DNA of 64,000 nt from Deltaproteobacteria bacterium (GTDB lineage: Bacteria; Desulfobacterota; Desulfobaccia; Desulfobaccales; 0-14-0-80-60-11), in assembly GCA_016874975.1 (NCBI GenBank), contig VGSQ01000002.1, positions 98-64,097 on the forward strand, given 5' to 3'. Every line of letters begins with the position of its first letter. The first letter of the stretch is position 1. A program made the position numbers and the translations under genes. The notes under the pieces are model-generated. The model did not search any database and was not told where the DNA came from. It saw only the letters and a list, made by a program, of their open reading frames with translations. Shown here piece by piece: positions 1,764 through 56,498 of this stretch.

Positions 1764-2963
1764 ATGGCCGGAAACGGAAACCTCATGGCAGGCCGACCCA
1801 AAAAACTGTTGATGGTCATCTCCACCCTGGAGGGCGGCGGGGCCGAAAGGGTGGTGACCTACCTGTTGCGCTTTCTGGACCGGAGGCGGGTGGCCCCGGT
1901 GCTGGTGTTGCTCCAGGAAAAGATCGACTATGCGCCGGACCTGCCGGCCGATGTAAGGGTTGTTTGCCTCAGCCGGGGCAGCATCCGCAACCTGCCCCGG
2001 CTTTTGCTGGGTCTGGTGCGGGTCATGCGGAAGGAACGGCCCGACCTGGTGGTGTCGTTCCTCACCTTTGCCAACCTGCTCACCATCCTGGCGCACCGGC
2101 TGGCGGGGGTGGAGGCGGGGCTGCTGGTCAGTGAACGCAATCATGTGAGCCGCAGCCTGGACCATGTTCGCCTGGGCGGCGTCAAAAAATTGCTGGTGCG
2201 GCTGCTCTACCGGCGGCCGCACAGGATCCTGGGCGTCTCCCGGGGGGTGTGCCGGGACCTGACGGGTAATTTCGGGGTGGAGGCGGCCCGCTGTCTGGCC
2301 ATCCCCAACCCCTGCGACCTGGAGCGCATCGCCCACCGGTCCCGCCAGCCGGCGGACCACCCCTGGTTTCAGGAGGACCTCCCGGTCTTCGTGGCGGTGG
2401 GCCGGCTGACCCGGCAGAAAAATTATCCGCTGCTCCTCAAGGCCGCGGCCCTGGCCCGGGCCGATGCGCCTCTCCGGCTCATGATTCTGGGGGCCGGGGA
2501 GTTGCGCCGGGAACTGGAGGCGCTGGCCGGATCGCTGGGGATCGCCGACGCGGTGGCCTTCCTGGGTTTCCGGGAGAATCCCTTCGCTTACCTGGCCCGG
2601 GCCCGAGGCCTGGTGTTGTCGTCCTCCTGGGAAGGATTCCCCAACGTCCTGCTGGAGGCCATGGCCCTGTCGGCGCCGGTCATCGCCACCCGCTGCCCCA
2701 GCGGCCCTGAGGAGATCATCACCCACGGGGTGAACGGCCTGTTGGCGCCGGTGGACGACCCGCCGGCCCTGGCCGCGGCGCTGACCCTGCTGGGCACCGA
2801 CGCCGACCTGGCCGGGCGTCTGGGCAAGGCGGGCCGCCTTCGGGTGGAAGATTTTCAGGTGGGGCTCATGGTCCGGGAGTATGAAACAGTCTTTGGCGAA
2901 GCCTGGCGGGGCGCGGCCGGCGAGCCCGCGCCGCTTCAGTCGCCGGGCGAGGTGCGCCCATGA
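1764..2963 (+). CDS. Glycosyltransferase family 4 (GT-B)
   Basis: C-terminal GT4 signature SSSWEGFPNVLLEAMALSAPVIATRCPSGPEEIITHGVNGLLAP. N-terminal LLMVISTLEGGGAERV. The start could also be Met8. Confidence 0.85.
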   Translation: MAGNGNLMAGRPKKLLMVISTLEGGGAERVVTYLLRFLDRRRVAPVLVLLQEKIDYAPDLPADVRVVCLSRGSIRNLPRLLLGLVRVMRKERPDLVVSFLTFANLLTILAHRLAGVEAGLLVSERNHVSRSLDHVRLGGVKKLLVRLLYRRPHRILGVSRGVCRDLTGNFGVEAARCLAIPNPCDLERIAHRSRQPADHPWFQEDLPVFVAVGRLTRQKNYPLLLKAAALARADAPLRLMILGAGELRRELEALAGSLGIADAVAFLGFRENPFAYLARARGLVLSSSWEGFPNVLLEAMALSAPVIATRCPSGPEEIITHGVNGLLAPVDDPPALAAALTLLGTDADLAGRLGKAGRLRVEDFQVGLMVREYETVFGEAWRGAAGEPAPLQSPGEVRP

Positions 2964-6974: not shown

Positions 6975-9002
6975 ATGGCCGATTTAGAGAAGCTGACCAT
7001 GGACGAAGCGGCGCAGGCGATGCTCAAGAAGGCGGCTGCCGAGGGCATTGAGACCATTTTCGACCGCGCCGAGAAGATGAAACCCTGCCCCATCGGCATT
7101 GAGGGGGCCTGTTGCCGCATTTGCGCCCAGGGTCCCTGCCGGGTGCCCATGCCCAAGAAGAAGGCGGGCGAGGAAGCCCCGGCGGAGAAGAAGGCCCGCA
7201 TGGGTCTGTGCGGCGCCACCGCGGAGACCATCGTGGCCCGGAACTTCGCCCGCATGGTGGCGGCTGGTTCGGCCAGCCACAGCGACCACTCCCGGGGGGT
7301 GGCCAAGCTGTTCATCGAGGTGGCCCAGGGGAAAGCCCAGGGTTACGAGCTCAAAGACGTCACCAAGCTCAAGGCCGTGGCTAAGGACTGGGACGTGGCC
7401 ACCACGGTGGGCGAGGGCGAGGACGCCAAGCCCCGGCCCAAGAACGAGATCGCCCTGGAGCTGGGTCGGAAGATTCTGGCCGAGTTCGGGCAGCAGGACG
7501 GCGAGATCAACTACGTGAAGCGAGCCCCCAAGAAGCGTCAGGAAATCTGGCGCAAAGAGGGCGTGGTGCCCCGGGGCGTGGACATTGAGGTGGTGGAGCT
7601 GATGCACCGCACCCACATGGGGGTGGACCAGGACTACAAGAACCTCATCAAGCAGTCCACCCGCTGCGCCCTGGCGGACGGCTGGTCCGGATCCATGATC
7701 TCCACGGACCTGCAGGACATTATGTTCGGCTGCCCGGTGCCGGTGGCGGGCGAGATCAACCTGGGGGTGCTCAAGGAAGACCACGTCAACGTCATCATGC
7801 ACGGCCATGAGCCGCTCCTGCCCGAGATGCTGGTGGTGGCCTCCCGGGAGCCGGAGCTGATCCAGTACGCGCAGTCCAAGGGCGCCAAGGGCATCCAGTT
7901 GGCGGGCATGTGCTGCAGCGCCAACGAAGTGATGATGCGCCACGGGGTGCCGGTGGCGGGCAACTACCTGCACCAGGAGCTGGGCATCATCACCGGTGCG
8001 GTGGACGCCATGGTCATCGACGTACAGTGCGAGATGCAGTCTCTGGCCAACGTGGCGGCCTGCTATCACACCAAGGTGGTGACCACCGACACCCGGGCCA
8101 AGATCGAAGAGCATCCGTCCGTGGTGCACATCGAGTTTGACGAGCACCACGCCCTGGACGTGGCCCGGCAGGTGCTGCGCACGGCCATCGACAACTTCCC
8201 CAACCGGCGGGCGCCGGTGATGATCCCGGCGGCCTCCACCCCCACCATCGTGGGCTTCAGCTACGAGACCATTCGCTACCTGTTGGGCGGCTCCATCCGG
8301 GGCACCTACTACACCCTGAACGACAACGTCATCGGCGGCCGCATCCGGGGCGTGGCCGGCGTGGTGGGCTGCAACAACTGCCGCACCACCCAGGATTCCA
8401 GCCACATGACGGTGATCACGGAGCTGTTGAAGAACGACGTCATCGTCTTGAGCACGGGCTGTGCGGCCATGGCCGCGGGGAAATACGGGCTGCTCACCCC
8501 CGAGGCGGCCACCAAGTACTGCGGTCCGGGTCTGGCGGAGATCTGCGAGACGGTGGGCATCCCGCCGGTGCTGCACATGGGGGCCTGCGTGGACAACTCC
8601 CGCATTCTGATGGCGGCCACGGCCTGCGTCAAGGCGGGGGGCCTGGGCGCGGACATCAGCGACCTGCCCGCGGCGGGCTGCGCGCCGGAGTGGATGAGTG
8701 AGAAAGCCATCGCCATCGGCCAGTACTTCGTGGCCTCGGGCGTGTACACCCTGTTCGGGGTGACCTTCCCCACCACCGGCTCCGAGATCCTGACGGACTA
8801 CCTGTTCAAGGGTCTGGAGGACGTGTACGGCGGCAAGTGGGACTTTGTGGCCGACCCCGAGGAGATGGCCAGGCGCATGATCGCCCACATCGACAAGAAG
8901 CGGGCCGCGCTGGGCATCGACAAGGCCCGGGAGCGGGTGCTCTACGACATGGCCATGCGCCGGGAACTGGAAGAAGCCGCCCGCGCCGCGGAAGAGGTCT
9001 AA
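6975..9002 (+). CDS. cooS: Anaerobic carbon-monoxide dehydrogenase catalytic subunit
   Basis: AAGGAG RBS. 675 aa with CODH cluster-ligand motifs CPIGIEGACCRICAQGPCRV, HGHEPLL, GMCCSANE, GVVGCNNC, and HMGACVDNSR near the C-terminus. Confidence 0.95.
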   Translation: MADLEKLTMDEAAQAMLKKAAAEGIETIFDRAEKMKPCPIGIEGACCRICAQGPCRVPMPKKKAGEEAPAEKKARMGLCGATAETIVARNFARMVAAGSASHSDHSRGVAKLFIEVAQGKAQGYELKDVTKLKAVAKDWDVATTVGEGEDAKPRPKNEIALELGRKILAEFGQQDGEINYVKRAPKKRQEIWRKEGVVPRGVDIEVVELMHRTHMGVDQDYKNLIKQSTRCALADGWSGSMISTDLQDIMFGCPVPVAGEINLGVLKEDHVNVIMHGHEPLLPEMLVVASREPELIQYAQSKGAKGIQLAGMCCSANEVMMRHGVPVAGNYLHQELGIITGAVDAMVIDVQCEMQSLANVAACYHTKVVTTDTRAKIEEHPSVVHIEFDEHHALDVARQVLRTAIDNFPNRRAPVMIPAASTPTIVGFSYETIRYLLGGSIRGTYYTLNDNVIGGRIRGVAGVVGCNNCRTTQDSSHMTVITELLKNDVIVLSTGCAAMAAGKYGLLTPEAATKYCGPGLAEICETVGIPPVLHMGACVDNSRILMAATACVKAGGLGADISDLPAAGCAPEWMSEKAIAIGQYFVASGVYTLFGVTFPTTGSEILTDYLFKGLEDVYGGKWDFVADPEEMARRMIAHIDKKRAALGIDKARERVLYDMAMRRELEEAARAAEEV

Positions 9003-14356: not shown

Positions 14357-15904
14357 ATGCTCGATCCCCATGCCCAAAAAGTCCTGATACTGGATTTCGG
14401 CTCCCAGTACACCCAGCTCATCGCCCGGAGGGTGCGGGAGCTCAAGGTCTACTGCGAGATCCATCCCTACTTCATGCCCCTGGACCGCATCCGGGCCTTC
14501 GCCCCGGGCGGCATCATCCTGTCGGGCGGCCCCCGCAGCGTCTACGAGGACGACGCGCCCTTGCTCGACCCCGCGGTCCTCCACCTGGGGGCGCCGGTGC
14601 TGGGCATCTGCTACGGCATCCAGCTCCTGTGCCACCTCCTGGGCGGGAAAGTGGTCCCCGCGGTCTCCCGGGAATACGGCCGCAAGGCCTTTGAAATCCG
14701 GGACGCCCAGGATCTCTTCTACGGCCTGCCGGTCCGGGAGACGGTCTGGATGAGCCACGGCGACCGGGTGGATGAGGCGCCTCAGGGCTTTGAGATCATC
14801 GGCGCCAGCGATTCCAGCCCGGTGGGCGCGGTGCGGGACGCAGGCCGCCGCCTCTTCGGGGTGCAGTTCCACCCCGAGGTGCACCACACCCCCCGGGGCA
14901 AGGAAATCCTGGCCAATTTCCTCTTCCGCATCTGCGGCCTCAAGCCCCTGTGGACCATGGCCTCCTTCATCGAAGCCACCACCGAGGCCATCCGCCGGGA
15001 GGTGGGGGAGGACCGGGTCATCTGCGCGCTGTCCGGCGGCGTGGACTCTTCGGTGACCGCGGTGCTGGTGCACCGGGCCGTGGGCGAGCGCCTCACCTGC
15101 ATCTTCGTCAACAACGGTCTCTTGCGCCACCGGGAGGCCGAAGAGGTGCTCCACCTCTTCCGGGACCAGCGCCACCTCAACATCATTTACGTGGACGCCG
15201 CCGACGCCTTTCTGGCTCGCCTGGACGGCATCACCGACCCCGAGGAAAAGCGGGTGCGCATCGGCCACGAGTTCATCCGCATCTTCGCGGAGGAGGCCCG
15301 CAAATTGGGGGGCGTCAAGTACCTGGCCCAGGGGACGCTCTATCCCGACGTCATCGAAAGCGTCTCCTTCAAGGGGCCGTCGGCCACCATCAAGACGCAC
15401 CACAACGTGGGCGGCCTGCCTGAGGTGATGCCCCTCCAACTCCTGGAGCCGCTCCGGGAGCTTTTCAAGGACGAGGTGCGGGAGGTGGGCGCGGCCCTGG
15501 AGCTGCCCGACTCCCTCATCTGGCGCCACCCCTTCCCCGGCCCCGGCCTGGCCATCCGCATCCTGGGGGAGGTCACCCCCGAGCGGCTGGCCGTGCTGCG
15601 GGAGGCGGACGCCATCGTCATGGAGGAGATGGAGCGGGCCGGCGTCTACCGTCAGGTCTGGCAGGGGTTCGCGGTGCTGCTGCCCATCCGCACGGTGGGG
15701 GTGATGGGGGACGAGCGCACCTACGAGAACGTCATCGCCCTGCGCATCGTGGACTCCCAGGACGCCATGACCGCGGACTGGACCCGCCTGCCCCACGATT
15801 TCCTGGCCCACCTCTCCAACCGCCTCATCAACGAGGTCAAGGGGGTCAACCGGGTGGTGCTGGACATCTCGAGCAAACCGCCGGCGACGATTGAATGGGA
15901 ATGA
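14357..15904 (+). CDS. guaA: GMP synthase (glutamine-hydrolysing)
   Basis: Start at [28 protein letters not shown]. GATase and ATP-PPase (SGGVDSSV) motifs. Ends with the canonical PPATIEWE. Confidence 0.95.
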
Positions 15905-15940
15905 TAATCATTTTCTATCTAACCAAACAGGAGAAACAAA

Positions 15941-16276
15941 ATGTATGAGGGTTTATGGACAGTTGAATTTATATCGGAGATGAATCGAACTGGCAAGGGT
16001 GTAATAATATTAACGAAAGATGGGCGCCTTTTAGGGGGCGATTCCGGTTATTACTACTCAGGCACATATAATATTGCTAACGATAACAAAATATCTGGTC
16101 AAGTTCTTGTCATCAGATATAATCCTAATGCCATGTCTGTCCTAGGAGATAAAAACAATTTTAAGCTTTATTTTACTGGTCAAATTGATAATCTTCATTT
16201 GTCGGCAACCGCTAAGACCCAAGAAATGCCTCAATACACAATGAAAATTATTGCTAACAGGAAGGCTGATTTTTAA
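15941..16276 (+). CDS. GrlR-like (lipocalin-like beta-barrel) small protein; candidate antitoxin/partner of the downstream RSH protein
   Basis: AGGAG RBS and AT-rich codons. The pattern GLWTVEFIS..G.GVIILTKDGRLLGGDSGYYYSGTY...VLVIRYNPNAMSVLG parallels the GrlR family (G.Y...FIS...G.G...I..G...GGD...Y.G......RYN...SVL). Similarity judged by eye only. Confidence 0.55.
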   Translation: MYEGLWTVEFISEMNRTGKGVIILTKDGRLLGGDSGYYYSGTYNIANDNKISGQVLVIRYNPNAMSVLGDKNNFKLYFTGQIDNLHLSATAKTQEMPQYTMKIIANRKADF

Positions 16277-16278
16277 CA

Positions 16279-16911
16279 ATGAAATATAATATTGAAGAAA
16301 TTTATGCGGAATATAAAATAAGAGAAGAGAATGCCCTGCTTCTCATTGAGGAGGTTAAATTTATTATATTAGAATGTATCAATAGGGAAAAAATTAATAT
16401 TCACTCATTAAAGAATAGATTCAAAGAGTTTGATTCATTTTTAGGCAAAGTAGAGAGGAAAAAGTCAGAAAATCCCTTTCATGAAATATATGATTTAATA
16501 GGTTTTAGAATTACCTGCTTGTTTCTGGAAGACATTCAAAACATTAGTGATTTGCTAAAAATAAATTTTGAATTAATAGAAACTTTTGACTCTATGGAAG
16601 AAGGAGATTATGATGTGTTTGGATATATGGCTTGTCATCATAAGGCCATGCTAAAACATAATTCAAAATTTAATGGAATAGCAAAAAATTACCCATTTGA
16701 GATACAAGTTATGACTATTGCTAAAAATGCCTGGGCCTCTATTTCCCATCACCTTTTTTATAAAAAGGAGTTTTTCCTCCCGGACAACCTGAAACGAGAT
16801 TTCCATGCCTTGAGTGCTTTGTTGTATATTGCTGACAAGCAATTCTCATTACTTCGCAAAGAGCAATTTGTATATTATTTAGAACAAGTTGATAAATTGA
16901 ATGGGGACTAA
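16279..16911 (+). CDS. Stand-alone RelA/SpoT-homologue synthetase (nucleotidyltransferase) domain protein, small-alarmone-synthetase/toxSAS-like
   Basis: Ordered RSH synthetase motifs SLKNRFKEFDSFLGKVERKK, YDLIGFRITCLF, FGYMACHH, FEIQVMTIAKNAWASISHHLFYK. No HD hydrolase or C-terminal regulatory domains. Starts 2 nt after the upstream ORF. Confidence 0.8.
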   Translation: MKYNIEEIYAEYKIREENALLLIEEVKFIILECINREKINIHSLKNRFKEFDSFLGKVERKKSENPFHEIYDLIGFRITCLFLEDIQNISDLLKINFELIETFDSMEEGDYDVFGYMACHHKAMLKHNSKFNGIAKNYPFEIQVMTIAKNAWASISHHLFYKKEFFLPDNLKRDFHALSALLYIADKQFSLLRKEQFVYYLEQVDKLNGD

Positions 16912-16913
16912 TA

Positions 16914-17939
16914 GTGAGTAATAGTAGACCATCGGTCAATTTTTTCCGAGAAATATTAGGACAAATTCAGGTCTTAATATATTTGAAAACAGCCTTGCAG
17001 GTTGGCCGCCTGGCCCACGCCTATCTGTTCCTGGGTCCCGAAGGGGTGGGCAAGGCCTCCACCGCCCGGGCCCTGGCCGCGGCCCTGAACTGCGAGAGTC
17101 TGCGGGAGGACGGCGACGCCTGCGGGAGGTGCCCCTCCTGTCGCCGCCTGGCCGCCGGGACCCATCCCGATTATCTGGAGATTTTTCCCACTTCCGAGGG
17201 CCGGCAGCCTCAGATCAAGATCGAACGGATTCGCGATCTGCGTCGCCTCACGGCCTATCCGCCCCTGGGCGGCGGCTGGCGGGTGGTGCTCATCAAACCC
17301 GCGGAAGCTTTGAACGACGCCGCGGCCAACGCCCTGCTGAAGACCCTGGAGGAGCCCCCGGAGCAGAACCTGTTGGTGCTCACCGCGGGGGTGGAGGACA
17401 ACCTGTTCCCCACGGTGGTCTCCCGCTGCCAGAAGCTGGCCTTTACGCCCCTGCCCCTCCCCCTGATCCGGGATGAACTGGCGCGGCGGGGCGCCGAGCC
17501 CGCCCAGGCCGGCCTGCTGGCGGCCCTGAGCGGCGGCTCCCTGGCCCGGGCGTTGGCGCTCAATTATGACGAGATGGTGGAAAAGCGCCGCCAGGTGCTG
17601 GCCGACCTGGAGCAGCTTGCGGACGGCAACACCGCGCCCCTGCTGGACTGGGCCCAGCGTCTGGCCAAGCAGGCGGGCGAGGCGGAGGCCTTCCTGGGGC
17701 TGGCCGCCCTGTGGCACCGGGATCTTATCCTCCTGGGCCAGGGCGCCCCGGCGGAGCTGCTGGCGAACCGGGACTGCCTGCCGGAGATGGAGGCAGCCTG
17801 CCGCCGGCAGCGCCCTGGGGTCTGGTTCCGCCGCTTCGCCGCCATCGCCGCGGCCCAGCGGCATCTCCGGGCCAACCTCAATCCCGAACTGACCCTGGAC
17901 TTCCTGGGACTACATCTCCGAGGAGGCCCTACCCCATGA
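16914..17939 (+). CDS. holB: DNA polymerase III subunit delta-prime
   Basis: FREILGQ...GRLAHAYLFLGPEGVGKA Walker-A-like region, Zn module CESLREDGDACGRCPSCRR, and SRCQKLAF. GTG start 2 nt after the RSH stop. The first ~20 codons are AT-rich. Confidence 0.85.
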   Translation: MSNSRPSVNFFREILGQIQVLIYLKTALQVGRLAHAYLFLGPEGVGKASTARALAAALNCESLREDGDACGRCPSCRRLAAGTHPDYLEIFPTSEGRQPQIKIERIRDLRRLTAYPPLGGGWRVVLIKPAEALNDAAANALLKTLEEPPEQNLLVLTAGVEDNLFPTVVSRCQKLAFTPLPLPLIRDELARRGAEPAQAGLLAALSGGSLARALALNYDEMVEKRRQVLADLEQLADGNTAPLLDWAQRLAKQAGEAEAFLGLAALWHRDLILLGQGAPAELLANRDCLPEMEAACRRQRPGVWFRRFAAIAAAQRHLRANLNPELTLDFLGLHLRGGPTP

Positions 17940-21548: not shown

Positions 21549-21684
21549 CTTGAAAAGTCGTTCCGTAGGGTGCGCACCGCGCACCATTGCCCGGGCCTGA
21601 CGGCGAGCAGAGACGCCCGCCCCACCGGCATTTTCATGGGTTACGGGTGGGCCAAAGGCCCATGCGCGACTGCTCTGAAAAGTT
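21549..21684. repeat. Composite intergenic mosaic repeat (modules R1 + GACGCCCGCCCCACCGGC + TTTTCATG-hairpin)
   Basis: CTTGAAAAGT...GTAGGGTGCGCACCGCGCACCAT...AGACGCCCGCCCCACCGGC-ATTTTCATGGGTTACGGGTGGGCCAAAGGCCCATGCGCGACTG...CTGAAAAGTT. The same module order recurs at 50219-50415 and 54705-54810. Confidence 0.85.
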
Positions 21685-29799: not shown

Positions 29800-30378
29800 T
29801 CAGGTTCTCTGCATGATCTGGTCATACAGCCTTTCGGCGTCTTCCCGGCGGCACAATTCCGTGCCCGGGGTCATCACCCCGGCCGCACCGGCGGCCACCC
29901 CGAAGCGCAGGGCCTCCCGCCAGGGCCGGCCCCGGGCCAGGGCGAGCACCATGCCCGCCACGGTGCTGTCGCCGGCCCCCACCTTGCTTTTGATGGGCGC
30001 CAGGGGCGCCCGCAGCCGCTGTGCGCCCTGGGCGGTGGCCGCCAGGACCCCCGCGGCCCCCAGGGAAACCACCACCACCTCGCTCTTGCGGCGGGCGACC
30101 AATTCCAGGGCCAGGCGTTCCTCCTGCGTCTCGTTCGCCAATTCCCGGCCCGTCAGTTCGGCAAACTCCCGCAGGTTGGGTTTGATCAAAAACACCCCCT
30201 CCTCCAAGGCCAGGCGCAGGGCTTCCCCGGAAGTGTCCACCACCAGCCGGGTATCCTGTTCTTTCGCCAGCCTGGCGATCCGGCCGTAAAAATCCGCAGG
30301 CGCCCCGGGAGGCAGACGCCCGCTGGCCACCAGGTAATCCACCCGGGGGAGGAGGCCGGCGATTTCCTCCAGTTGGCA
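29800..30378 (-). pseudogene. PfkB-family sugar kinase (1-phosphofructokinase-like), 5'-truncated
   Basis: Only the C-terminal ~190 aa are present (VASGRLPPGAP..., LIKPNLREFAELTG, GAGDSTVAGMV). The N-terminal ~100 aa of the fold are replaced by repeat-derived sequence (MKSFRRVRLTHHC). Confidence 0.7.
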
Positions 30379-30412
30379 ATGGTGCGTAAGACGCACCCTA
30401 CGGAAGGACTTC

Positions 30413-30515
30413 ACCGTGAAAATCCCGGTTCTGTAGGGGCGGGTTTGAAACCCGCCCCTACAAAAGGTTTTTCATGCCCGGGGGTGGCCCCGTTGGGGCC
30501 ATGAGCATTTCATAG
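30413..30515 (+). repeat. 103-bp dispersed repeat, copy 2
   Basis: Near-identical to 25260-25362. Contains the perfect hairpin GTAGGGGCGGGTTTGAAACCCGCCCCTAC. An inverted R1 module at 30379-30401 immediately precedes it. Confidence 0.9.
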
Positions 30516-39333: not shown

Positions 39334-39720
39334 ATGCGCGGTAAAAAGCCTGATCACGGCCGGGGCACGGCCCTGGCGGAGAGCCCGACGGCGCCGCATG
39401 GGGTCCGCATCAAAGGGCGCCTCTGGCTGGAAAAGGACGGGGAGACCTTCCTCAGTTGGGGCCGCGTCGTCCTGTTGGAGCGCATCCGGGAGCACGGCTC
39501 CATCGCCGCCGCGGCCCGTTCCATGGACATGGCTTACAGCCACGCCTGGACCCTGGTGAAAAGCATGAACGCCCTGGCCGGGGAGGAACTGGTGGCCCGC
39601 ACCTTCGGGGGACGCCACGGCGGCCGGGCCTGGCTCACCCCCGCGGGAGAGGCGGCCGTGGCCCGCTTCTGGGACCTGGCGGCCCGTTTCCGGGAATGGT
39701 TGATGGATCAAGGGGAATAA
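39334..39720 (+). CDS. ModE-like winged-helix regulator (N-terminal domain only, no Mop domains)
   Basis: GRVVLLERIREHGSIAAAARSMDMAYSHAWTLVKSMN...GGRHGGRAWLTPAGE matches the ModE/LysR-type HTH N-terminal domain. Sits directly upstream of tupABC. Confidence 0.75.
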   Translation: MRGKKPDHGRGTALAESPTAPHGVRIKGRLWLEKDGETFLSWGRVVLLERIREHGSIAAAARSMDMAYSHAWTLVKSMNALAGEELVARTFGGRHGGRAWLTPAGEAAVARFWDLAARFREWLMDQGE

Positions 39721-39763
39721 AAGATATTGTTTTGCAATGCGATATCTTTTGAAAATTATATCG
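39719..39763. promoter_or_regulatory. Overlapping inverted repeats upstream of tupA, candidate ModE-type operator
   Basis: AAAAGATAT-N14-ATATCTTTT (39719-39750) and CGATAT-N12-ATATCG (39740-39763). The octamer ATATCGAT also occurs upstream of the regulator gene at 39304-39311. Confidence 0.4.
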
Positions 39764-39778
39764 ATTGAAAGGTAGATC

Positions 39779-40600
39779 ATGATGGTTAACAGGATAGTCC
39801 TTTGGTGTTGTTCTGTCAGCCTCCTCATGGCCGGGACCGCTTTCGCCCAGACCCGGATCAAGTGCGCCTCCACCACCAGCACCCAGAATTCCGGGTTGTT
39901 CGATTTTTTGTTGCCCATCTTCGAGAAAAAGACGGGCCTCAAGGTGGACGTGGTGGCCGTGGGCACCGGCGCGGCCATTGAAATCGGCAAACGGGGCGAC
40001 GCCGACGTGGTCATGGTGCACGCCAGGGAACTGGAGCTCAAGGCCGTGGAGGAAGGTTGGTTCAAGGACCGCCACGACCTGATGTACAACGACTTTGTCA
40101 TCATCGGCCCCACGGACGACCCTTTAAAAATCAAGGGCATGAAGTGGGTGGTGGAGGCCTTCCAGAAAATCGCCGCCCAGGACAAGGCTCCTTTCGTCTC
40201 CCGGGGCGACAGGTCCGGCACCCACACCATGGAGCTGGGCATCTGGAAGAAGGCGGGGGTGGACCCCAAGGGCCAGAAGTGGTACCTGGAGGTGGGCCAG
40301 GGCATGGAGAAGACCCAGCGCATCGCCAACGAGAAAAGGGCCTACACCCTGACCGACCGGGGCACCTGGCTGGCCGCCAGAGACAAGGACAAGCTGGAGA
40401 TGGTCATCGTGCTGGAGGGCGACTCCAGCCTCTTCAACCAGTACGGGGTCATGGCGGTGAACCCGGAGAAGCACCAGCAGGCCAAATATCAAGAGGCCAG
40501 GATGTTCATCGACTGGCTCATCTCCACGGAAGGCCAGAAGGCCATCGGCGACTTCAAGGATAAACACGGCAACCAGCTTTTCACGCCGAACGCCAAGTGA
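39779..40600 (+). CDS. tupA: Tungstate/molybdate ABC transporter substrate-binding protein (TupA type)
   Basis: Signal peptide. STTSTQNSGLFDFLLP anion-binding motif, VAVGTGAAIEIGKRGDADVVMVHA. Oxyanion specificity cannot be decided from sequence alone. Confidence 0.8.
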   Translation: MMVNRIVLWCCSVSLLMAGTAFAQTRIKCASTTSTQNSGLFDFLLPIFEKKTGLKVDVVAVGTGAAIEIGKRGDADVVMVHARELELKAVEEGWFKDRHDLMYNDFVIIGPTDDPLKIKGMKWVVEAFQKIAAQDKAPFVSRGDRSGTHTMELGIWKKAGVDPKGQKWYLEVGQGMEKTQRIANEKRAYTLTDRGTWLAARDKDKLEMVIVLEGDSSLFNQYGVMAVNPEKHQQAKYQEARMFIDWLISTEGQKAIGDFKDKHGNQLFTPNAK

Positions 40601-40634
40601 GGGGTCGATCTTGAGGTGAGGGCTGGGGGGTTAT

Positions 40635-40725
40635 GGTGTCAGGTGCCAGGTGCCAGGTGCCAGGTTTCCTCTGGTTCCCAAGCTCCTGCTTGGGAACCGG
40701 AATGCTCGCCAAGCTCACGCTTGGC
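40635..40725 (+). repeat. Heptamer array (GGTGCCA)n + conserved double hairpin element, copy 1
   Basis: GGTGTCA GGTGCCA x3 GGTTTCC, then GGTTCCCAAGC-TCCT-GCTTGGGAACC and GCCAAGC-TCAC-GCTTGGC. Starts 35 nt after the tupA stop. Confidence 0.85.
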
Positions 40726-40813
40726 CAGAGTATCGCTGCGTTTGGGTGTGGGGAGTCAAGGCGCCATGATGGCCATCTCTGATTTCGGCTGCCTTTACCT
40801 GAACTGAACTTCC

Positions 40814-41533
40814 ATGGAAACCATCTTCCAGGGTTTGGTCAGCGCCGTTCGCCTCATCGCCGGTTTCAACCCGGAGTTGCTGGGGATTATCTTCCTGTCC
40901 CTGCAGGTGTCCGGCCTGGCCTTAGGCGCCGCCAGCGCCTTGGGGCTGCCCCTGGCGGCCCTCCTGGCCCTGAAGCGCTTCCCTCTGCGGGGCCTGCTGT
41001 TGGGCCTCCTCAACACCGGCATGGGGCTCCCGCCCGTGGTGGTGGGCCTGCTGCTCTACCTCATCCTGTCCCGCAGCGGCCCCCTGGGCTTCCTGGAGCT
41101 GCTCTACACCCCCGGCGCCATGATCATCGCTCAGACCATCCTGGCCTTTCCCATCGTTACGAGTCTCTCCCACGCCGCCATCGTGGGGGTGGACCCGGTC
41201 ATCCGCCTGGCCGCCCAGACCCTGGGGGCCACCCCCCGCCAGGAGGCCGCGGCGGTGGTGCGGGAGGCCCGCTACGGCATCGGCGCCGCCGTCATCGCCG
41301 CCTTCGGCCGAGTCAGCGCCGAAGTGGGGGCGGTGCTCATGGTGGGGGGCAACATCGCCCACTACACCCGGGTCATGACCACCGCCATCGCCCTGGAGAC
41401 GGACAAGGGGAATTTTGACCTGGGCATCGCCCTGGGGATCATCCTGCTGACCCTGTCCCTGTTGGTGACCGTGGCCCTGCGGGCCGTGCAACGCCGGGGC
41501 CGGGCCCCAACGGGGGTGCGGCTGTGGGATTGA
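40814..41533 (+). CDS. tupB: Tungstate/molybdate ABC transporter permease
   Basis: 239-aa polytopic protein with a binding-protein-dependent transport EAA-like region (AAQTLGATPRQEAAAVVREARYG). Confidence 0.8.
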   Translation: METIFQGLVSAVRLIAGFNPELLGIIFLSLQVSGLALGAASALGLPLAALLALKRFPLRGLLLGLLNTGMGLPPVVVGLLLYLILSRSGPLGFLELLYTPGAMIIAQTILAFPIVTSLSHAAIVGVDPVIRLAAQTLGATPRQEAAAVVREARYGIGAAVIAAFGRVSAEVGAVLMVGGNIAHYTRVMTTAIALETDKGNFDLGIALGIILLTLSLLVTVALRAVQRRGRAPTGVRLWD

Positions 41534-42180
41534 CGGTGCAGTTACACAAAATCGCCAAGGCCTACCAGGGGAACCGCATCCTGGCGGACTGCTCTTACAC
41601 CTTCGCGGCCGGGGGCGCCTATATCCTCATGGGCGACAACGGCAGCGGCAAGTCCACCCTCTTCCGCCTGGCGGCCCTGCTGGAGCCCCCCGACCAGGGT
41701 GAGGTGCGCTATCTCCAGGGGGACCTGACGCTGCCCCCGGACATCACCCTGAAACGACGCCTCACCATGGTCTTCCCTCGGGTGGGGGTCTTCAGCCGCA
41801 GCGTCTCTGAGAACGTGGCTTACGGCTTAAAAATCCGGGGCCTGCCCCGGGACCGGGTCCGGGAGCAGGTGGCCCGGGCCCTGGAAGAGGTTGCCTTATC
41901 ACACAAAACGCACCAGCCCGCCGCCACCCTTTCCAGCGGCGAGACCATGCGCCTGGGGCTGGCCCGGGCCCTGGCCGTCGAGCCCGAGGTCCTTTTCCTG
42001 GACGAACCCACCACCCACATCGACCGGGCCAACACCCGCCTCATCGAGGACTGCCTCCTCCAGACCCTACGGGAGCGGGCCCTGACCCTCATCCTGATCA
42101 CCCACGACCCGGCCCAGGCCCACCGGCTGGGAGGGCGGCGACTGCTCCTCCAGGAGGGCCGGATCGTGGAGGTGGATTGA
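41524..42180 (+). CDS. tupC: Tungstate/molybdate ABC transporter ATP-binding protein
   Basis: Walker A GDNGSGKST, signature LSSGETMR, Walker B VLFLDEPT. 10-nt overlap with the permease gene. Confidence 0.8.
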   Translation: MGLTVQLHKIAKAYQGNRILADCSYTFAAGGAYILMGDNGSGKSTLFRLAALLEPPDQGEVRYLQGDLTLPPDITLKRRLTMVFPRVGVFSRSVSENVAYGLKIRGLPRDRVREQVARALEEVALSHKTHQPAATLSSGETMRLGLARALAVEPEVLFLDEPTTHIDRANTRLIEDCLLQTLRERALTLILITHDPAQAHRLGGRRLLLQEGRIVEVD

Positions 42181-43189: not shown

Positions 43190-44001
43190 TTAGCCGATAA
43201 GCTGGCTCACCTCCTGCCGGGAGGCGCTCTCCAGCATGGCCTTCTTCACCAGGTTCAAGTGCTTGATGATCAAGTCGATCTTTTCCAGGTTTACGTGGGT
43301 GTTCCCCTGGTACACCTTGGCCAGCACCCGGCAATCATCCGGGGAAAAGGATTTCACGATGAGGCCCGTGACCGCGTCCAGGACCTTCTCCCACCGGGAG
43401 ACCAATTCCAGGTCTTCCTTCTTGGGCAGGGCAAACAGGGCGGTCTGCTTCTTGGCGTCTACCATGGCGGTGACGAACCGCCGCAGGTGGTTATAGGTTG
43501 AAAGCTCCCCGGCCCTGATCTTCTGGAAGACCAGCTCCTGGTCGTCCGGGTTCGCCAGCCGGCTCATTTCGAAGGCCTGGGATGGGGAGATGATCCCCTG
43601 CACCATGGCCTCCTGGAACTTGGGGGCCAGCTTCAGCAGGCTCAGGCGCTCATCCACCCGCCACACCTGTTTGAAGCCCAGCTTTTGGGCCAGTTCCTCC
43701 CTGGTGTAGCCGGAGTCGATCATGGACTGAAAGGCCCGGGCCTCCTCCAGGGGGGTCAGGTCCTGGCGCTGGATGTTTTCCACCAGGGCCATTTCCGCCA
43801 CCTGCTGGTCATCAGCCTCCAGCACCCTGACCGGGACCTTTTCCAACCCGGCTAGGTGAGCCGCCCGCCAGCGCCGCTCCCCGGCGATGAGCATGAACCT
43901 GCTATCCCGGGGCGCCACCACCAGGGGCTCGATCAACCCTTGCTCCTTGATGGAAAGAGCCAGTTCTTCCAGGGCCTCCCGCGGAAAGAACTTGCGGTCG
44001 G
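43190..44001 (-). pseudogene. ParB/Spo0J-like N-terminal-domain protein, 5' end disrupted by a group II intron
   Basis: ALEELALSIKEQGLIEPLVVAP...LIAGERRWRAAHLAG...ALVENIQRQDLTPLEEA is the ParB box II/III region. The reading frame upstream of codon PDRKFF is intron sequence. Confidence 0.8.
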
Positions 44002-44467
44002 GTAAAGAGGTCTCATTACTGAGGCCCCCCCCTAAGAACCGGACGTGAGAGTTTCCCCTCATCCGGCTCAAGTCGTTCAAAACCCCCACATGGTCAATGA
44101 AGGGTCGGCAACATACTGGCAATCTTGTTTATGCAACTGCCGATGGCAGATAGGATGCAAAAGCTGAAGATTTGACAGTACGTCTTTCCCGCCCTGAAGC
44201 TTCGGGATAACGCGGTGCATGTGCCACCCCGTTACCAGCGTGAAGTCTCCATGACAGATCGGACACTTTCCCTTCTGGGCCTGCCAAAATCTCCTAACCC
44301 TTCCATATAAAGCCAGGTCATTCTTGACCAAGAGAGCTTTCCTATTCTCAAAGTAAGGTTCCCAGGCCATATCATGTTGGTGATAGTTTGCCCACCCCCG
44401 AATAATCGGGTTTAGCAATTTAATCACCGATTCTTGTTTGGCTGTTTTGTAATCCTTCTGAAAACGG
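44002..44467 (-). mobile_element. Group II intron, 3' fragment: C-terminal maturase (X) + HNH endonuclease region of the IEP, then domains V and VI
   Basis: IEP remnant LNPIIRGWANYH...CPICHGDF...HMHRVIPKLQGGKDVLSNLQLLHPICHRQLH. Domain V on the minus strand at 44036-44069, GAGCCGGAUGAGGGGAAACUCUCACGUCCGGUUC, has the AGC triad, GAAA tetraloop and AC bulge. RT domains and intron domains I-III are absent. Confidence 0.85.
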
Positions 44468-50089: not shown

Positions 50090-50415
50090 CTCTGAAAAGT
50101 TCCTCAGGCGGCCTCGAGGGTCACCTGAAATCCTAAGTTCCGAAGGGTGCGCACTGCGCACCGTAAGGATGCTTAACTTTTCATAATTTATGGGTGAGCC
50201 CCAGGCTCATGAGCAACTGTCTTGAAAAGTCAGTGACCTTCTCTTTGCGCCCTTTGCGCCTTTGCGAGAAATTTTTCTCACGCTCAGCCACCAAGTTCCG
50301 TAGGGTGCGTCTCACGCACCATTGCCGGGGGTCGTCGGCGGGCAGGGACGCCCGCCCCACCGGCCTTTTCAGGTGTTATGTGCGGGCCGACGGGCCAGGC
50401 GCGACTGGTTGGGAA
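50090..50415. repeat. Dense cluster of mosaic intergenic repeat modules
   Basis: R1 hairpins at 50142-50164 and 50300-50322. TTTTCAT-hairpin modules at 50178-50230 and 50366-50415. GGGACGCCCGCCCCACCGGC module at ~50344-50363. Confidence 0.85.
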
Positions 50416-52480: not shown

Positions 52481-52713
52481 CGCCGGCCGGCCTCGCCATT
52501 CCATCCTCGCTTCCACCATAAAGTTGTTCCGTAGGGTGCGCACCGCGCACCATGGCCTGGGTCTGGCGGCGGGCGGGGACAACCCTGACCCCCTTGCGCC
52601 ATATTTTCCCCGCCGGCGTGGACATTTCCCTCCCAATGATTATGTTTAGAAATAATATTGTAAAAGCAAAAGCCGGCGCAGTCCGGCCCCCAACCTCCTC
52701 CTGTGAGGCCATC

Positions 52714-53616
52714 ATGTCATGCTGTCGGCCATCCTGGTTCCGGGCGGCGCTGATCATCTTCCTGGCCGCCCTGTTGACGGCCGTGGGGCTGACCTTCTCC
52801 CCGGGCCCGGTCATGGTTCAACCCCTTTTGGGAGCCAATATTCCCGACACCTCGGAGGCGCCCCTGATTATGAAAACATCTTCCACTGACGCAGGCAAAA
52901 ACCCGGCGATTCCCCCTCTGGACGCGGCCCCGCCGGGCCGTCTGGAAACGGCCACCTTCGCCTTGGGGTGATTCTGGGGTCCGGAGGCCCGGTTCGGGGC
53001 CTTGCAGGGCGTCATCCGCACCCGGGTGGGGTACGCCGGGGGCGCCCGGCCTGATCCCACCTACCACCGCCTGGGCGACCACAGCGAGGTGGTGCAGATC
53101 GACTTCGACCCTCGGCAGATCACCTACGCCCAACTGCTGGCGGTCTTTTGGCAGAGCCACGATCCCACGAGCCAGGCCTGGTCTCGGCAATATCGGACCG
53201 CGGTCTTCTATCACGACGACATCCAGCAGCGGCTGGCCCAGGAGAGCCGGGAGCGGGTGGCCGCCCGGCTGGGAGGCAGGATTCACACCACCGTGGAGCC
53301 GGCCACCACGTTTTACCTGGCCGAAGGCTACCATCAGAAGTATTACCTGCAGCAGTCCCGCACCTTCTGGGCCGAGTATCTCAGGGTGTATCCGGCGGTG
53401 GGCGACCTGATCAATTCCACCGCCGCCGCCCGGGTGAACGGCTACCTGGCCGGCTACGGCGCGGCACAGGACTTTCAGGCCGACCTGCCCCGCCTGGGGC
53501 TGTCCCCCGAGGCCCGGGAGAAGCTTTACACCCTGGTGGCCGGCTCGAGGCGCTTCCGCCAGGCCGAACAGAAAGGGGAAGAGGCCGGGGCCGCCTGCCC
53601 GCGGCCTGGCCAGTGA
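52714..53616 (+). CDS. msrA: Peptide-methionine (S)-S-oxide reductase MsrA, exported; in-frame UGA (selenocysteine) at the catalytic position
   Basis: ORFs 52552..52971 and 53002..53616 share one frame and are separated only by TGA 52969-52971. Read-through gives ATFALG-U-FWGPEARFGALQGVIRTRVGYAGG (GCFWG motif). N-terminal anchor MSCCRPSWFRAALIIFLAALLTAVGL. The start codon is uncertain. Confidence 0.72.
52985..53002 (+). promoter_or_regulatory. Candidate bacterial SECIS hairpin
   Basis: AGGCCC-GGTTCG-GGGCCT begins 13 nt after the UGA. The loop contains GGUU. Confidence 0.5.
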
Positions 53617-53620
53617 GGCA

Positions 53621-53711
53621 GGTGTCAGGTGTCAGGTGTCAGGTTCTATGTTTCACTCTGGTTACCAAGCTCCCGCTTGGGAACCGGATTGCCCGCAAAG
53701 CTCTGCTTTGC
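53621..53711 (+). repeat. Heptamer array (GGTGTCA)n + conserved double hairpin element, copy 2
   Basis: GGTGTCA x3 GGTTCTA, then GGTTACCAAGC-TCCC-GCTTGGGAACC and GCAAAGC-TCT-GCTTTGC. Starts 5 nt after the msrA stop. Homologous to 40635-40725. Confidence 0.85.
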
Positions 53712-53984: not shown

Positions 53985-54503
53985 ATGCGGCTTTCTTCCT
54001 TCCTGCCCCGGGCGCTGCTGGGGGCCGCCTTGCTGCTGACATTGATGGTGGCCGCCGGGGACCCTGTACTGGCCGGACCCTCTTCCCCCCCCAAAGGAGA
54101 AAAACCGGTGATCGAAAAAGTGGTGAAAACCGACGAGGAATGGCGCCGCCTGCTGACGCCCGAGCAATACCGCATCCTGCGGCAGAAGGGCACGGAGCGG
54201 GCCTTCACCAGTAAATACCATGACTTCAAAGGCAAGGGGGTTTACCACTGCGCCGGGTGCGACCTGCCGCTGTTCAGCTCCGAGCAGAAGTTCGACTCGG
54301 GCACCGGCTGGCCCAGCTACTGGGCCCCGCTGGCCCCGGAGCAGATCCGCACCCAGGACGATTCGAGCTTTTTCATGAAGCGCATCGAAGTGCTGTGCGC
54401 CCGCTGCGACGGTCATCTGGGGCACGTCTTCAACGACGGCCCGCCGCCCACCGGCCTGCGCTACTGCATGAACGGCGCGGCCCTAAAATTTATGGGAAAG
54501 TAG
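53985..54503 (+). CDS. msrB: Peptide-methionine (R)-S-oxide reductase MsrB, exported
   Basis: Start at MRLSSFLPRALLGAALLLTLMVAAG (signal peptide). Zn-binding CAGC...CARC. GWPSY, HLGHVFNDGP, and catalytic RYCMNG. Confidence 0.9.
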   Translation: MRLSSFLPRALLGAALLLTLMVAAGDPVLAGPSSPPKGEKPVIEKVVKTDEEWRRLLTPEQYRILRQKGTERAFTSKYHDFKGKGVYHCAGCDLPLFSSEQKFDSGTGWPSYWAPLAPEQIRTQDDSSFFMKRIEVLCARCDGHLGHVFNDGPPPTGLRYCMNGAALKFMGK

Positions 54504-54704
54504 GAGCTTTCCCCCAAAATTCCGGCGGCGCGCCATGGTCTCCCCCATATCAGGGGGCGCGCTGCGCACCCTACGGGCTGACCACCAGTTATAGGGTGGC
54601 CCGCGGCCGCCGACCCCGGCGTGCACGGCACGCCCTATGACAGTCCCGCCCTTTCTTCATCCGGGCAAAATCCTTGAGTTGTTTGCAGCGGCCGCACCAC
54701 CCGT

Positions 54705-55045: not shown

Positions 55046-55073
55046 TTGCATGTGAAACGGAAAATGGTATAAG
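55046..55073 (+). promoter_or_regulatory. Candidate sigma70-type promoter upstream of the radical SAM gene
   Basis: TTGCAT (55046-55051), 16-nt spacer, TATAAG (55068-55073). It would place the heptamer array in the 5' UTR. Confidence 0.3.
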
Positions 55074-55074
55074 A

Positions 55075-55165
55075 CCTGAAGCCTAAGCCCTAAAAACTAA
55101 AAGCTAAAACCTGAAACCTAAAACCTAAAACCTATAACCCAGAACCCGGAACCCAAAACCCGGAC
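55075..55165 (+). repeat. Tandem heptamer array, 13 units, CCTAAAA/CCCAAAA type
   Basis: CCTGAAG CCTAAGC CCTAAAA ACTAAAA GCTAAAA CCTGAAA CCTAAAA CCTAAAA CCTATAA CCCAGAA CCCGGAA CCCAAAA CCCGGAC. Confidence 0.95.
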
Positions 55166-55204: not shown

Positions 55205-56218
55205 ATGTGCTACAGTGCCAGGTATGCCGCCGGGGCGCCCGGCTTCGGCGCAGGGGATTTCATCAAGGGAAACATCGCCTCCATGCCCAGCAAAACCTAC
55301 AACGGTCTCTCCTCCCGCCTGAGAGGCCTGGCCCGGCAGGACCCCGCCGTCATCCCCAGCTTCTTCCGCTATGAATTCCGCCGCCGCTGGGGGGGCGCCC
55401 AGGACCGGCGCCTCACGGCCGGCGGCGGGGCCGTGCTGCCGGCTTTGATCAGCCTCAATCCCACCCGGCGCTGCAACCTGCGCTGCCGCATGTGTTTCCA
55501 ATACCGGCGGGAAAGCGAAATCCCGGACACCCTGGCCTGGTACCACGCCGACCAGGAACTGCCCCTGTCGGCCTGGGTCAACCTGTTGGACGAGGTGGCC
55601 GCCTGGCGCCTGCGTCAGAGCGGCCCCCACGGGCCCCCCTTGCCGCCCTGGAGCCGGCTCCTGGACCGGCTGGCCACCTGGCGCCCGGTGGTTTATGTCA
55701 CCGGCGGCGAGCCCCTGCTCTATCCACAGGTCGTGGAATTGCTGGCCGCGGCCCGGTCCCGCCGGCTGCTGGTGCACCTGCAGACCAACGGCACCCTGCT
55801 GGCCGGGGCGGCCCCGGACCTGGCCTCCCTGGGGCTGCAGATGGTGTCCGTCTCCCTTGACGGCCCCCCCGAGGTGCACGACCGCATCCGGGGCGTGCCG
55901 GGCAGCTTCCGGGTGCGCCGCCGGGCCCGGGGCCGCATCCCGGTGGGCTTCTCCCCGGACTTGCCGGACAGCCTGCTCAGCCCCTATTACCTGGACCTGG
56001 CGCACCCGTTCCCCCAGGAGTGCCGCCACCTGTGGATGGCCTGCCGCATCCTGCCGGACGGCTCGGTCTCCCCGTGCCTGCACCTGGTCATGGGCCGCAT
56101 CACCGAGGCGCCCCTCAGCCGCATCTGGAACAATGACCACTGCCGCAGCCTCCGCCGCCTGGCCGCGCAACGGCTGTTCCCCGGCTGCACCCGCTGCTGT
56201 TACCGGCGGTTTCAGTAG
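55205..56218 (+). CDS. Radical SAM enzyme with Cys-rich SPASM/twitch-like C-terminal region
   Basis: AGGAG RBS 7 nt upstream. CNLRCRMC (CxxxCxxC), VTGGEPLLY. C-terminal CRHLWMACRILPDGSVSPC...CRSL...GCTRCC. Confidence 0.85.
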   Translation: MCYSARYAAGAPGFGAGDFIKGNIASMPSKTYNGLSSRLRGLARQDPAVIPSFFRYEFRRRWGGAQDRRLTAGGGAVLPALISLNPTRRCNLRCRMCFQYRRESEIPDTLAWYHADQELPLSAWVNLLDEVAAWRLRQSGPHGPPLPPWSRLLDRLATWRPVVYVTGGEPLLYPQVVELLAAARSRRLLVHLQTNGTLLAGAAPDLASLGLQMVSVSLDGPPEVHDRIRGVPGSFRVRRRARGRIPVGFSPDLPDSLLSPYYLDLAHPFPQECRHLWMACRILPDGSVSPCLHLVMGRITEAPLSRIWNNDHCRSLRRLAAQRLFPGCTRCCYRRFQ

Positions 56219-56253
56219 CGTCGCCCGCGGGCGCGCCCGGGCATGGAGGGAGG

Positions 56254-56351
56254 GGTTTTGGGTTTTGGGTTTTGGGTTTTGGGTTTTGGGTTTTGGGTTT
56301 TGGGTTTTGGGTTTTGGGTTTTAGGTTTTAGGTTTTGGGTTTTAGGTTTTA
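56254..56351 (+). repeat. Tandem heptamer array, 14 units, GGTTTTG/GGTTTTA (complement of the upstream array)
   Basis: Nine GGTTTTG units, then GGTTTTA GGTTTTA GGTTTTG GGTTTTA GGTTTTA. An R1 hairpin at 56356-56378 follows directly. Confidence 0.95.
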
Positions 56352-56498
56352 GAGCGTAGGGTGCGCACCGCGCACCATGAATAAGGCCAGGGGAACCGGT
56401 TGGCGGCTAACGGCGTGGGGGGGGGGAACGGGGCAGGATCCCGGCAGCCCCGGCCCCCTCCCCCACCGACAACTTTTCCGATACCAAATTCTCTATCC

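Follow-up and report, generated by a model that had tools for sequence, protein, structure and literature searches.

We show that the gene at 52714–53616 of a 64,000-nt stretch of contig VGSQ01000002.1 (assembly GCA_016874975.1, Deltaproteobacteria bacterium; positions 98 to 64,097 of the forward strand, hereafter the window) runs across an in-frame UGA and belongs to the methionine sulfoxide reductase A (MsrA) family, that this UGA is shared by many relatives, and that a hairpin lying just past it is both conserved and covarying. The gene very probably encodes a selenocysteine (Sec)-containing MsrA (Sec-MsrA) of the subfamily of CoMsrA, the enzyme of Clostridium (Alkaliphilus) oremlandii OhILAs, in which a selenocysteine insertion sequence (SECIS) directs Sec to residue 86, the protein is likely exported, and Cys295 probably acts as the resolving residue. 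The core of this proposal, a selenoprotein MsrA, had been put forward in a first-pass annotation of the same DNA, and on sequence evidence it is upheld by the family match, by TGA at the catalytic codon of at least 126 other loci and by the covariation of the hairpin. The features of the gene are as follows.

52619–52646 (+): promoter-like TGGACA-16-TATGTT within AT-rich DNA upstream of msrA (consensus scan)
52706–52709 (+): Shine–Dalgarno-like GAGG, 4 nt before ATG 52714 (read directly from the sequence)
52714–53616 (+): complete msrA coding sequence, 300 codons, with M1, Sec86 (UGA), Cys295 and the true stop TGA 53614–53616 (translation, PMSR, PF20939, TIGR00401, PDB 4lwj/4u66)
52714–52791 (+): predicted N-terminal signal peptide or signal anchor MSCCRPSWFRAALIIFLAALLTAVGL, R5 and R10 followed by a 16-residue hydrophobic core (hydropathy, inspection)
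52948–53364 (+): MsrA catalytic domain, residues 79–217 (Pfam PF01625)
52969–52971 (+): in-frame UGA, predicted selenocysteine codon 86, at the catalytic position of G-[C/U]-FWG (translation; TGA at the matching codon in relatives)
52975–53014 (+): extended, interrupted stem-loop enclosing the core hairpin, with lower stems 52975–52977/53012–53014 and 52979–52982/53007–53010 (minimum free energy, MFE, fold of a 46-nt stretch)
52984–53003 (+): putative SECIS core hairpin, 7-bp stem 52984–52990/52997–53003, loop GGUUCG 52991–52996 (folding, covariation, synonymous constraint, family model)
53356–53538 (+): C-terminal helical domain typical of selenoprotein MsrA, residues about 215–275 (PF20939 match; CoMsrA alignment to chain residue 205)
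53596–53598 (+): Cys295 codon TGC in the C-terminal A-A-C-P, sole Cys after Sec86 and candidate resolving Cys (sequence; relatives' tails)

Gene organization

The TGA at 52969–52971 is the sole stop separating two open reading frames (ORFs) of the same frame, 52552–52971 and 53002–53616, as the first-pass annotation had stated, and translation bears out both coordinates and frame: 52714–53616 contains a single internal stop, after which the protein resumes with FWGPEARFG, and closes with the terminal TGA at 53614–53616. Read through, the junction is ...RLETATFALG-[UGA]-FWGPEARFGALQGVIRTRVGYAGG. The further claim that ORF calling had split one MsrA in two is sustained by the PMSR and PDB alignments described below, which run across the TGA; in the corrected annotation the two ORFs that had been called, of 85 or 139 and of 204 residues, become one predicted 300-residue selenoenzyme. 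Since GAGG lies 4 nt upstream, a promoter-like site lies at 52619–52646 and one JGI gene call uses this start, translation of msrA is likely to begin at ATG 52714 rather than at ATG 52552. The promoter consensus scan upstream of msrA returned three sites, against 0.3 expected from shuffles.

Relationship to CoMsrA

Domain and family models were scored on the read-through protein with U written as C. Pfam PMSR (PF01625) matched residues 79–217, spanning the TGA (E 2.6e-44; 151.6 bits against a cut-off of 23.7), NCBIfam TIGR00401 (msrA) gave 136.8 bits (cut-off 108.1), and PF20939, 'Selenoprotein methionine sulfoxide reductase A, helical domain', matched residues 232–264 with 28.6 bits (cut-off 23.7). 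The active-site motif reads G85-U86-F87-W88-G89, U being the TGA at 52969–52971. The best relatives of solved structure were PDB 4lwj, 4u66 and 7c13 (E about 6e-59), which we take to be Sec-to-Cys forms of the natural C. oremlandii selenoprotein CoMsrA (length 209, catalytic residue 16). Residues 76–275 align with chain residues 6–205 (of 209) of 4lwj/4u66 over 200 residues without a gap, and Sec86 falls on Cys16 of the solved chain. Moreover, Y117, E125, Q159, Y160, H207 and Y210 align with the CoMsrA active-site residues Tyr47, Glu55, Gln89, Tyr90, His137 and Tyr140 (PMC4333827), so that six out of six are conserved. Considering the ungapped match, the position of Sec86 on Cys16 and the conservation of all six residues, the window protein is, as judged from its sequence, a two-domain MsrA of the CoMsrA type. 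That the UGA occupies the catalytic Cys of the GCFWG motif, as had been claimed, is confirmed by the PMSR match across it, by the alignment with CoMsrA Cys16 and by the TGA of relatives; the comparison with Cys- and Sec-type MsrA that the first-pass annotation had proposed puts either a TGA or a Cys codon at this same catalytic position.

The two proteins have in common the predicted catalytic Sec in G-U-FWG and the PMSR plus PF20939 build. They differ in that CoMsrA (209 residues, Sec16; 1-Cys type) lacks both a signal sequence and any Cys and depends on glutaredoxin for its reduction (PMC4479559), whereas the window protein is longer at either end, by a 75-residue N-terminal extension that holds the predicted signal or anchor and by a C-terminal tail of 25 residues in which Cys295 is part of A-C-P.

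The UGA codon across relatives

The DNA of relatives came from two scans. One ran a profile that begins past the catalytic codon on a set of genomes in which each species is represented once, and the other ran a Cys-form profile on metagenome contigs; the numbers of relatives given here are those among the matches listed for both scans, and the resulting TGA:Cys-codon ratio of 127:9 (window included) is not a population ratio. In these genomes and metagenomes the catalytic codon is TGA in at least 126 loci besides the window and TGC or TGT in at least nine. Hosts of these loci include uncultured Deltaproteobacteria, Desulfobacterales, Desulfomonile and Syntrophales, as well as Anaerolineae, Dehalococcoidales, Nitrospirota, Synergistaceae and Halobacteroidaceae, and also an isolate, Desulforamulus aeronauticus DSM 10349. 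The protein is conserved on either side of the TGA in these relatives (I-P-P-I-D...E-T-A-T-F-A-L-G before it and F-W-G-P-D after it), and the identical TGA is found in contigs of two other metagenome samples. Ordinary genes of the window end in TGA more often than in either other stop codon: of 52 ORFs picked by their codon-position G+C, 23 have TGA, 19 TAA and 10 TAG.

Among the best 120 database homologues the catalytic position is recorded as C in 84, as 'W' in 25 and as R in one, while the remaining 10 have no recognizable motif, several of these beginning just after the motif position. Two of the 'W' entries were checked on the DNA, and both proved to be TGA translated with a code-4-type table. 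Sec-MsrA is represented in public protein collections in damaged form: split, shortened, or with 'W' at the catalytic site and read-through C-termini. Two public metagenome contigs (L164:851–1810 and L165:995–1711) hold Sec-MsrA stored as 'GWFWG', with the TGA read as Trp, and in the protein entry of L164 a real TGA stop has been read through as well, adding a false C-terminal tail. In at least one relative (L009:6689–7834) the gene that immediately follows the Sec-type msrA encodes a second MsrA, a Cys-type paralogue (GGCFWC) that has a signal-like N-terminus itself.

The hairpin downstream of the UGA

The hairpin AGGCCC-GGTTCG-GGGCCT, placed by the first-pass annotation at 52985–53002, is present at that position and with that sequence, 13 nt after the UGA, and a G-U pair 52984/53003 extends its stem to 7 bp. 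The MFE of the core is -14 kcal/mol (26-nt stretch) and that of the extended stem-loop -22.6 kcal/mol (46-nt stretch; the lower stems are known from the window fold alone). For comparison within the family, positions are counted from the U of the UGA, so that the window stem has the register 16–22/29–35 with loop GGUUCG, and 123 distinct Sec-type sequences (122 relatives and the window) were used.

Synonymous positions within the hairpin are constrained in these Sec forms. The third position of codon 7 is C in 119/123, that of codon 8 is G in 121/123 (CGG 75, CAG 35, AGG 8), and codon 10 is GGG in 111/123; the Gly codons 4 and 14, the Pro codon 5 and the Arg codons 17 and 19 vary freely (about 1.9 bits). 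Cys forms (n=9) are without this constraint, with G at the third position of codon 8 in two of nine and GGG at codon 10 in one of nine (Fisher p = 1e-8 and 6e-7, respectively, for Sec against Cys forms). Further, the helix 17–22/28–33 is 81% paired in the family, with compensatory changes at pair 19–31 (U-A 66, G-C 22, U-G 8, G-U 4) and at pair 18–32 (C-G 70, U-G 16, U-A 10, G-C 2). The covariation score is 0.178, against 0.093 for column shuffles (none of 500 reaching it) and at most 0.07 with partner columns slid. At the protein level these changes appear as coupled residues, D-S-R-F-G-S (UCC...AGY) versus D-A-[RQ]-F-G-[A/Q/L] (GCC...). In the loop, G24 is present in 121/123 and U25 in 123/123 Sec forms. 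Uniform synonymous recoding of the relatives gave a mean z of -2.1, a value partly confounded by G+C content, and because of this we rely on the codon-level counts. The conservation, the covariation and the synonymous-site constraint across 122 relatives argue strongly that the hairpin is a real element, and with its near-invariant G24-U25 loop it fits the bacterial SECIS that had been proposed. RNAalifold, applied to the 123-sequence alignment, returned a different and weak structure (-1.38 kcal/mol) with no compensatory pairs; this candidate was rejected, the hairpin named above being the one that beats the shuffled and slid controls.

Scoring with a bacterial SECIS model had also been suggested. 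A covariance model built from the 122 relatives, with the window left out, matches 52969–53016 at 62.1 bits (E 6e-14), a match that is a fit to the family, partly through coding homology, rather than independent proof. A second, weak match of this model at 2482–2506 (+) (22.9 bits, E 4e-4) is judged to be spurious, lying out of frame inside a glycosyltransferase gene and squeezed to 25 nt. Rfam reported no SECIS family in the window.

The archetypal bacterial SECIS is that of E. coli fdhF, whose sequence we confirmed in 5,419 genomes; it spans 17 nt, and its apical loop holds the G23-U24 contacted by SelB (PMC8659212). Both elements are stem-loops within the coding sequence a few bases past the UGA; the minimal element starts 11 nt after the UGA in fdhF and 12–13 nt after it in the window, and the apical-loop G-G-U lies at +22–24 and +23–25, respectively, so that the spacing of the loop G-U agrees within one base. 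The loop is GGUUC(G) in the window and GGUC in fdhF, and the upper stem of the window hairpin is G+C-rich and uninterrupted.

Two Cys forms, L131 and L161, retain a strong hairpin at the SECIS position in the first 48 nt from the catalytic codon, with a local MFE of -16.4 kcal/mol (z = -5.8 relative to synonymous recoding) and -16.9 kcal/mol (z = -3.6), respectively. Such hairpins may be relics of a SECIS in lineages that recently exchanged Sec for Cys.

Export and the neighbouring msrB

The N-terminus of the predicted MsrA reaches a highest 12-residue Kyte–Doolittle hydropathy of 2.99. Since R5 and R10 precede the hydrophobic core and no positive charge follows it for about 40 residues, an N-in, C-out topology is favoured for the cleaved and the uncleaved segment alike. 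Where cleavage would occur is ambiguous (AVG/L), a cut after AVG being a guess. The gene that follows has a signal-like N-terminus of its own:

53985–54503 (+): msrB, Cys-type, SelR domain, N-terminal signal-like MRLSSFLPRALLGAALLLTLMVAAGDPVLA (Pfam SelR, E 2.3e-52)

The NCBI entry for this ORF, from a metagenome-assembled genome named 'Deltaproteobacteria bacterium', is also called MsrB. Inspection and hydropathy are consistent with the first-pass description of the MsrA N-terminus as a signal or anchor and of the MsrB as exported. Its view that export and Sec form an uncommon combination does not hold for this clade, since N-termini are signal-like in 98 of 122 Sec-type relatives by a hydropathy rule and in 106 of 120 by a looser one (about 80–88%). 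Of those 98, 29 have a lipobox and 17 a twin-arginine motif, and two are fused behind an MsrB domain. Twin-arginine (Tat-type) signals are seen, for example, at L033, L034, L045, L072 and L164 (such as RRSFMKLLG, or RRTFVKTL with a lipobox), and signals of this type imply that these Sec-MsrA relatives are exported after folding. No neighbour recurs among 71 genome loci, and the adjacency to msrB is not kept.

Extracytoplasmic Msr systems are known, among them Neisseria PilB, a Trx–MsrA–MsrB protein (Trx, thioredoxin). Likewise, E. coli MsrPQ repairs methionine sulfoxide outside the cytoplasm (PMC6316033). The window resembles these systems in that MsrA and MsrB are both signal-like. It differs from them in having no fused thioredoxin domain and in that DsbD/CcdA, MsrP and MsrQ were not found nearby (Pfam on window ORFs); the catalytic residue would be Sec in the window MsrA, as against Cys or molybdopterin in PilB/MsrPQ.

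Cys295 and regeneration

The window protein ends in ...GAACPRPGQ, with Cys295. Of 121 Sec-type relatives, 33 have a Cys among their last 15 residues, in most cases within x-[AG]-C-P-x, and 77 are without any Cys. CoMsrA, which has no cysteine, is recycled by glutaredoxin, whereas the MsrA proteins of E. coli and bovine origin have C-terminal resolving cysteines (PMC4479559). With its Cys295 the window protein departs from the 1-Cys type, defined by the lack of a resolving Cys, so that it shares the CoMsrA fold but probably differs in its regeneration chemistry; by analogy, we propose that Cys295 may be the resolving residue and form a selenenylsulfide.

Proposed mechanism

From these data we infer Sec insertion, export, a role for Cys295 and the kind of reductant, in the following course. 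Translation would begin at ATG 52714; at UGA 52969 the hairpin core 52984–53003 (loop GGUUCG), acting as a bacterial SECIS, would recruit SelB and Sec-tRNA(Sec), and Sec would become residue 86 of the protein, within its G-U-FWG active site, whilst the second TGA (53614), which is without such a hairpin, would terminate the protein. The N-terminal hydrophobic segment most likely takes the enzyme out of the cytoplasm, either as a cleaved signal or as an N-in anchor. Once outside, the MsrA would reduce methionine-S-sulfoxide alongside the exported MsrB from the adjoining gene, its selenenic acid intermediate probably being resolved by Cys295 to a selenenylsulfide that some extracytoplasmic thiol reductant would then reduce. 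If this is true, the organism must decode UGA as Sec.

Several results weigh against parts of this proposal. On its own the window hairpin is unexceptional (z = -0.16 for 60 nt and about -1.7 for 26–46 nt), 13.7% of synonymous recodings with window codon usage folding equally well; its stem is one base off the family consensus register, with two non-standard pairs in the model alignment, and it has no bulged U like U17 of fdhF. Single-sequence folding has little power here and is uninformative in DNA of 63% G+C, because E. coli fdhF itself scores only z = -1.33 in the same test. The 64-kb window contains no selA, selB or selD (Pfam on 40 ORFs), no tRNA and no tRNA-Sec (ARAGORN, Rfam), and no second in-frame-TGA selenoprotein candidate, the scan having returned only adjacent same-frame genes; extension of the contig by 10 kb upstream recovered polysaccharide genes only, and nothing was recovered downstream. 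The export of the MsrA, plausible as it is, has hydropathy and charge as its whole basis. Exported forms show no significant excess of the C-terminal Cys (30/106 against 2/14, p = 0.35), no CcdA/DsbD or Trx-like gene lies nearby (Pfam on the 40 window ORFs), and no neighbour is conserved among relatives.

Alternative explanations

The splitting of msrA by gene callers, together with the absence of the downstream fragment from NCBI-sourced proteins in which the neighbouring genes are present, would also be compatible with a pseudogene, that is, a Cys-type msrA whose TGC or TGT had mutated to the nonsense codon TGA, or with an error of sequencing or assembly. Considering that the TGA is shared by at least 126 other loci across phyla with coding conserved on both sides, that it recurs identically in contigs from independent samples, and that a co-conserved hairpin with synonymous-site constraint is not expected in decaying DNA, we find this highly improbable. 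It is similarly difficult to accept that the TGA is a true stop, with an exported peptide of 85 residues before it and, after it, an MsrA-like protein of 204 residues that has a start of its own: the ORF 53002–53616 does open with a TTG, and GGAG stands 16 nt upstream of it, but that spacing is poor, the downstream product would contain neither the catalytic residue nor FWG, the alignments to Pfam and PDB are unbroken across the TGA, and relatives show no conserved start past it, called fragments beginning at various points. An organism-wide reassignment of TGA to Trp or Gly, to which the 'W' ('GWFWG') in 25 of the best 120 database homologues might point, is excluded for practical purposes, because TGA is the commonest ordinary stop of the window (23/52 ORFs) and terminates msrA itself; in addition, the two 'W' entries checked were TGA read with the wrong table, the true stop of L164 was read through too, and an MsrA with Trp or Gly as its catalytic residue would be inactive.

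A different question is whether a Sec-MsrA, once made, might remain inside the cell, either as a cytoplasm-facing domain on a membrane tether or with a true start past the hydrophobic segment. The N-terminus has no clear AXA cleavage site, no periplasmic reductant gene lies nearby, and the characterized CoMsrA is cytoplasmic and glutaredoxin-reduced (PMC4479559). Against this, R5 and R10 before the core, with no positive charge for about 40 residues after it, favour an N-in, C-out orientation; in relatives the corresponding segment has clear lipoboxes and twin-arginine motifs; the adjacent MsrB is also signal-like at its N-terminus; and the promoter-like and ribosome-binding-site-like sequences fit a start at 52714. 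We therefore regard a non-extracytoplasmic Sec-MsrA as unlikely and prefer an exported one.

Distribution and implications

Sec-MsrA as an enzyme type is already known and common in public data. Sec-MsrA with the GUFWG motif is an established family (PMC13188914), and Deltaproteobacteria, the group of the present host, are richest in selenoproteins, with Sec-MsrA reported there (PMC1794560, PMC1976440). Members of this selenoprotein family have been reported from Deltaproteobacteria, the host group of the window, namely Syntrophobacter fumaroxidans and the delta1 symbiont of Olavius algarvensis, and from marine metagenomes (PMC1794560, PMC1976440, PMC2398784, PMC13188914). Those passages of these four reports that were searched contain no mention of signal peptides or of a C-terminal Cys, and no mention of export as a trait of the Sec-MsrA clade was found in the searched parts of the selenoprotein literature.

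We tentatively suggest, as a possibility rather than an expectation, that anaerobes harbour a large and mostly mis-annotated clade of Sec-MsrA exported by Sec-pathway, Tat or lipoprotein signals, spanning Desulfobacterota, Chloroflexota, Nitrospirota, Synergistota and some Firmicutes, in which Sec prevails over Cys and about one-quarter of members, the window protein among them, carry a C-terminal x-A-C-P-x Cys that could form a selenenylsulfide. If true, such a clade implies a periplasmic electron donor that differs from the glutaredoxin route of CoMsrA. The finding leaves knowledge of selenocysteine decoding and of MsrA chemistry unchanged, and raises the modest question of which reductant serves a selenoenzyme outside the cytoplasm in anaerobes.

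Other features of the window

A repetitive extragenic palindromic (REP)-like palindrome, GTAGGGTGCGCACCGCGCACC, occurs in five copies against none expected, three of them exact and two with two mismatches:

21565–21585: REP-like palindrome
50142–50162: REP-like palindrome
52531–52551 (+): REP-like palindrome
54554–54574 (-): REP-like palindrome
56356–56376: REP-like palindrome

Four of the five lie about 50–140 nt past a gene end, and two copies, 52531 (+) and 54554 (-), enclose the msrA–msrB pair. The palindrome may form a terminator or REP hairpin, or a regulator may bind to it. Directly after the msrA stop there is a CAGGTGT array of 3.7 copies (53619–53644). Heptamer arrays also flank a radical-SAM/SPASM gene (55205–56218) in inverted orientation, with about 10 copies of a TAAAACC-like unit upstream (55070–55160) and 14 copies of GGGTTTT downstream (56253–56350).

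A low-G+C island of about 1.1 kb (15900–17000; 28–34% G+C in a window of 63% G+C), containing an ORF with a RelA/SpoT domain (16279–16911), was probably horizontally acquired. The only Rfam match in the window is to a group II intron at 43997–44071 (-) (60.5 bits, full 77-position model); it overlaps the 5' end of a ParB-like ORF (43190–44122), no intron-encoded protein is evident nearby, and the intron may be ORF-less or truncated. Since the PfkB-family kinase ORF at 29800–30414 (-) covers only profile positions 122–298 of 302 and the upstream in-frame stretch contains two stops, this gene seems to be disrupted or frameshifted. Finally, a Prismane/CO-dehydrogenase-family gene (6975–9002) fits an anaerobic lifestyle, as does an ABC transporter (39334–42180; periplasmic binding protein, permease and ATPase) that adjoins a small helix-turn-helix regulator and whose substrate might be an oxyanion, for instance molybdate or tungstate.

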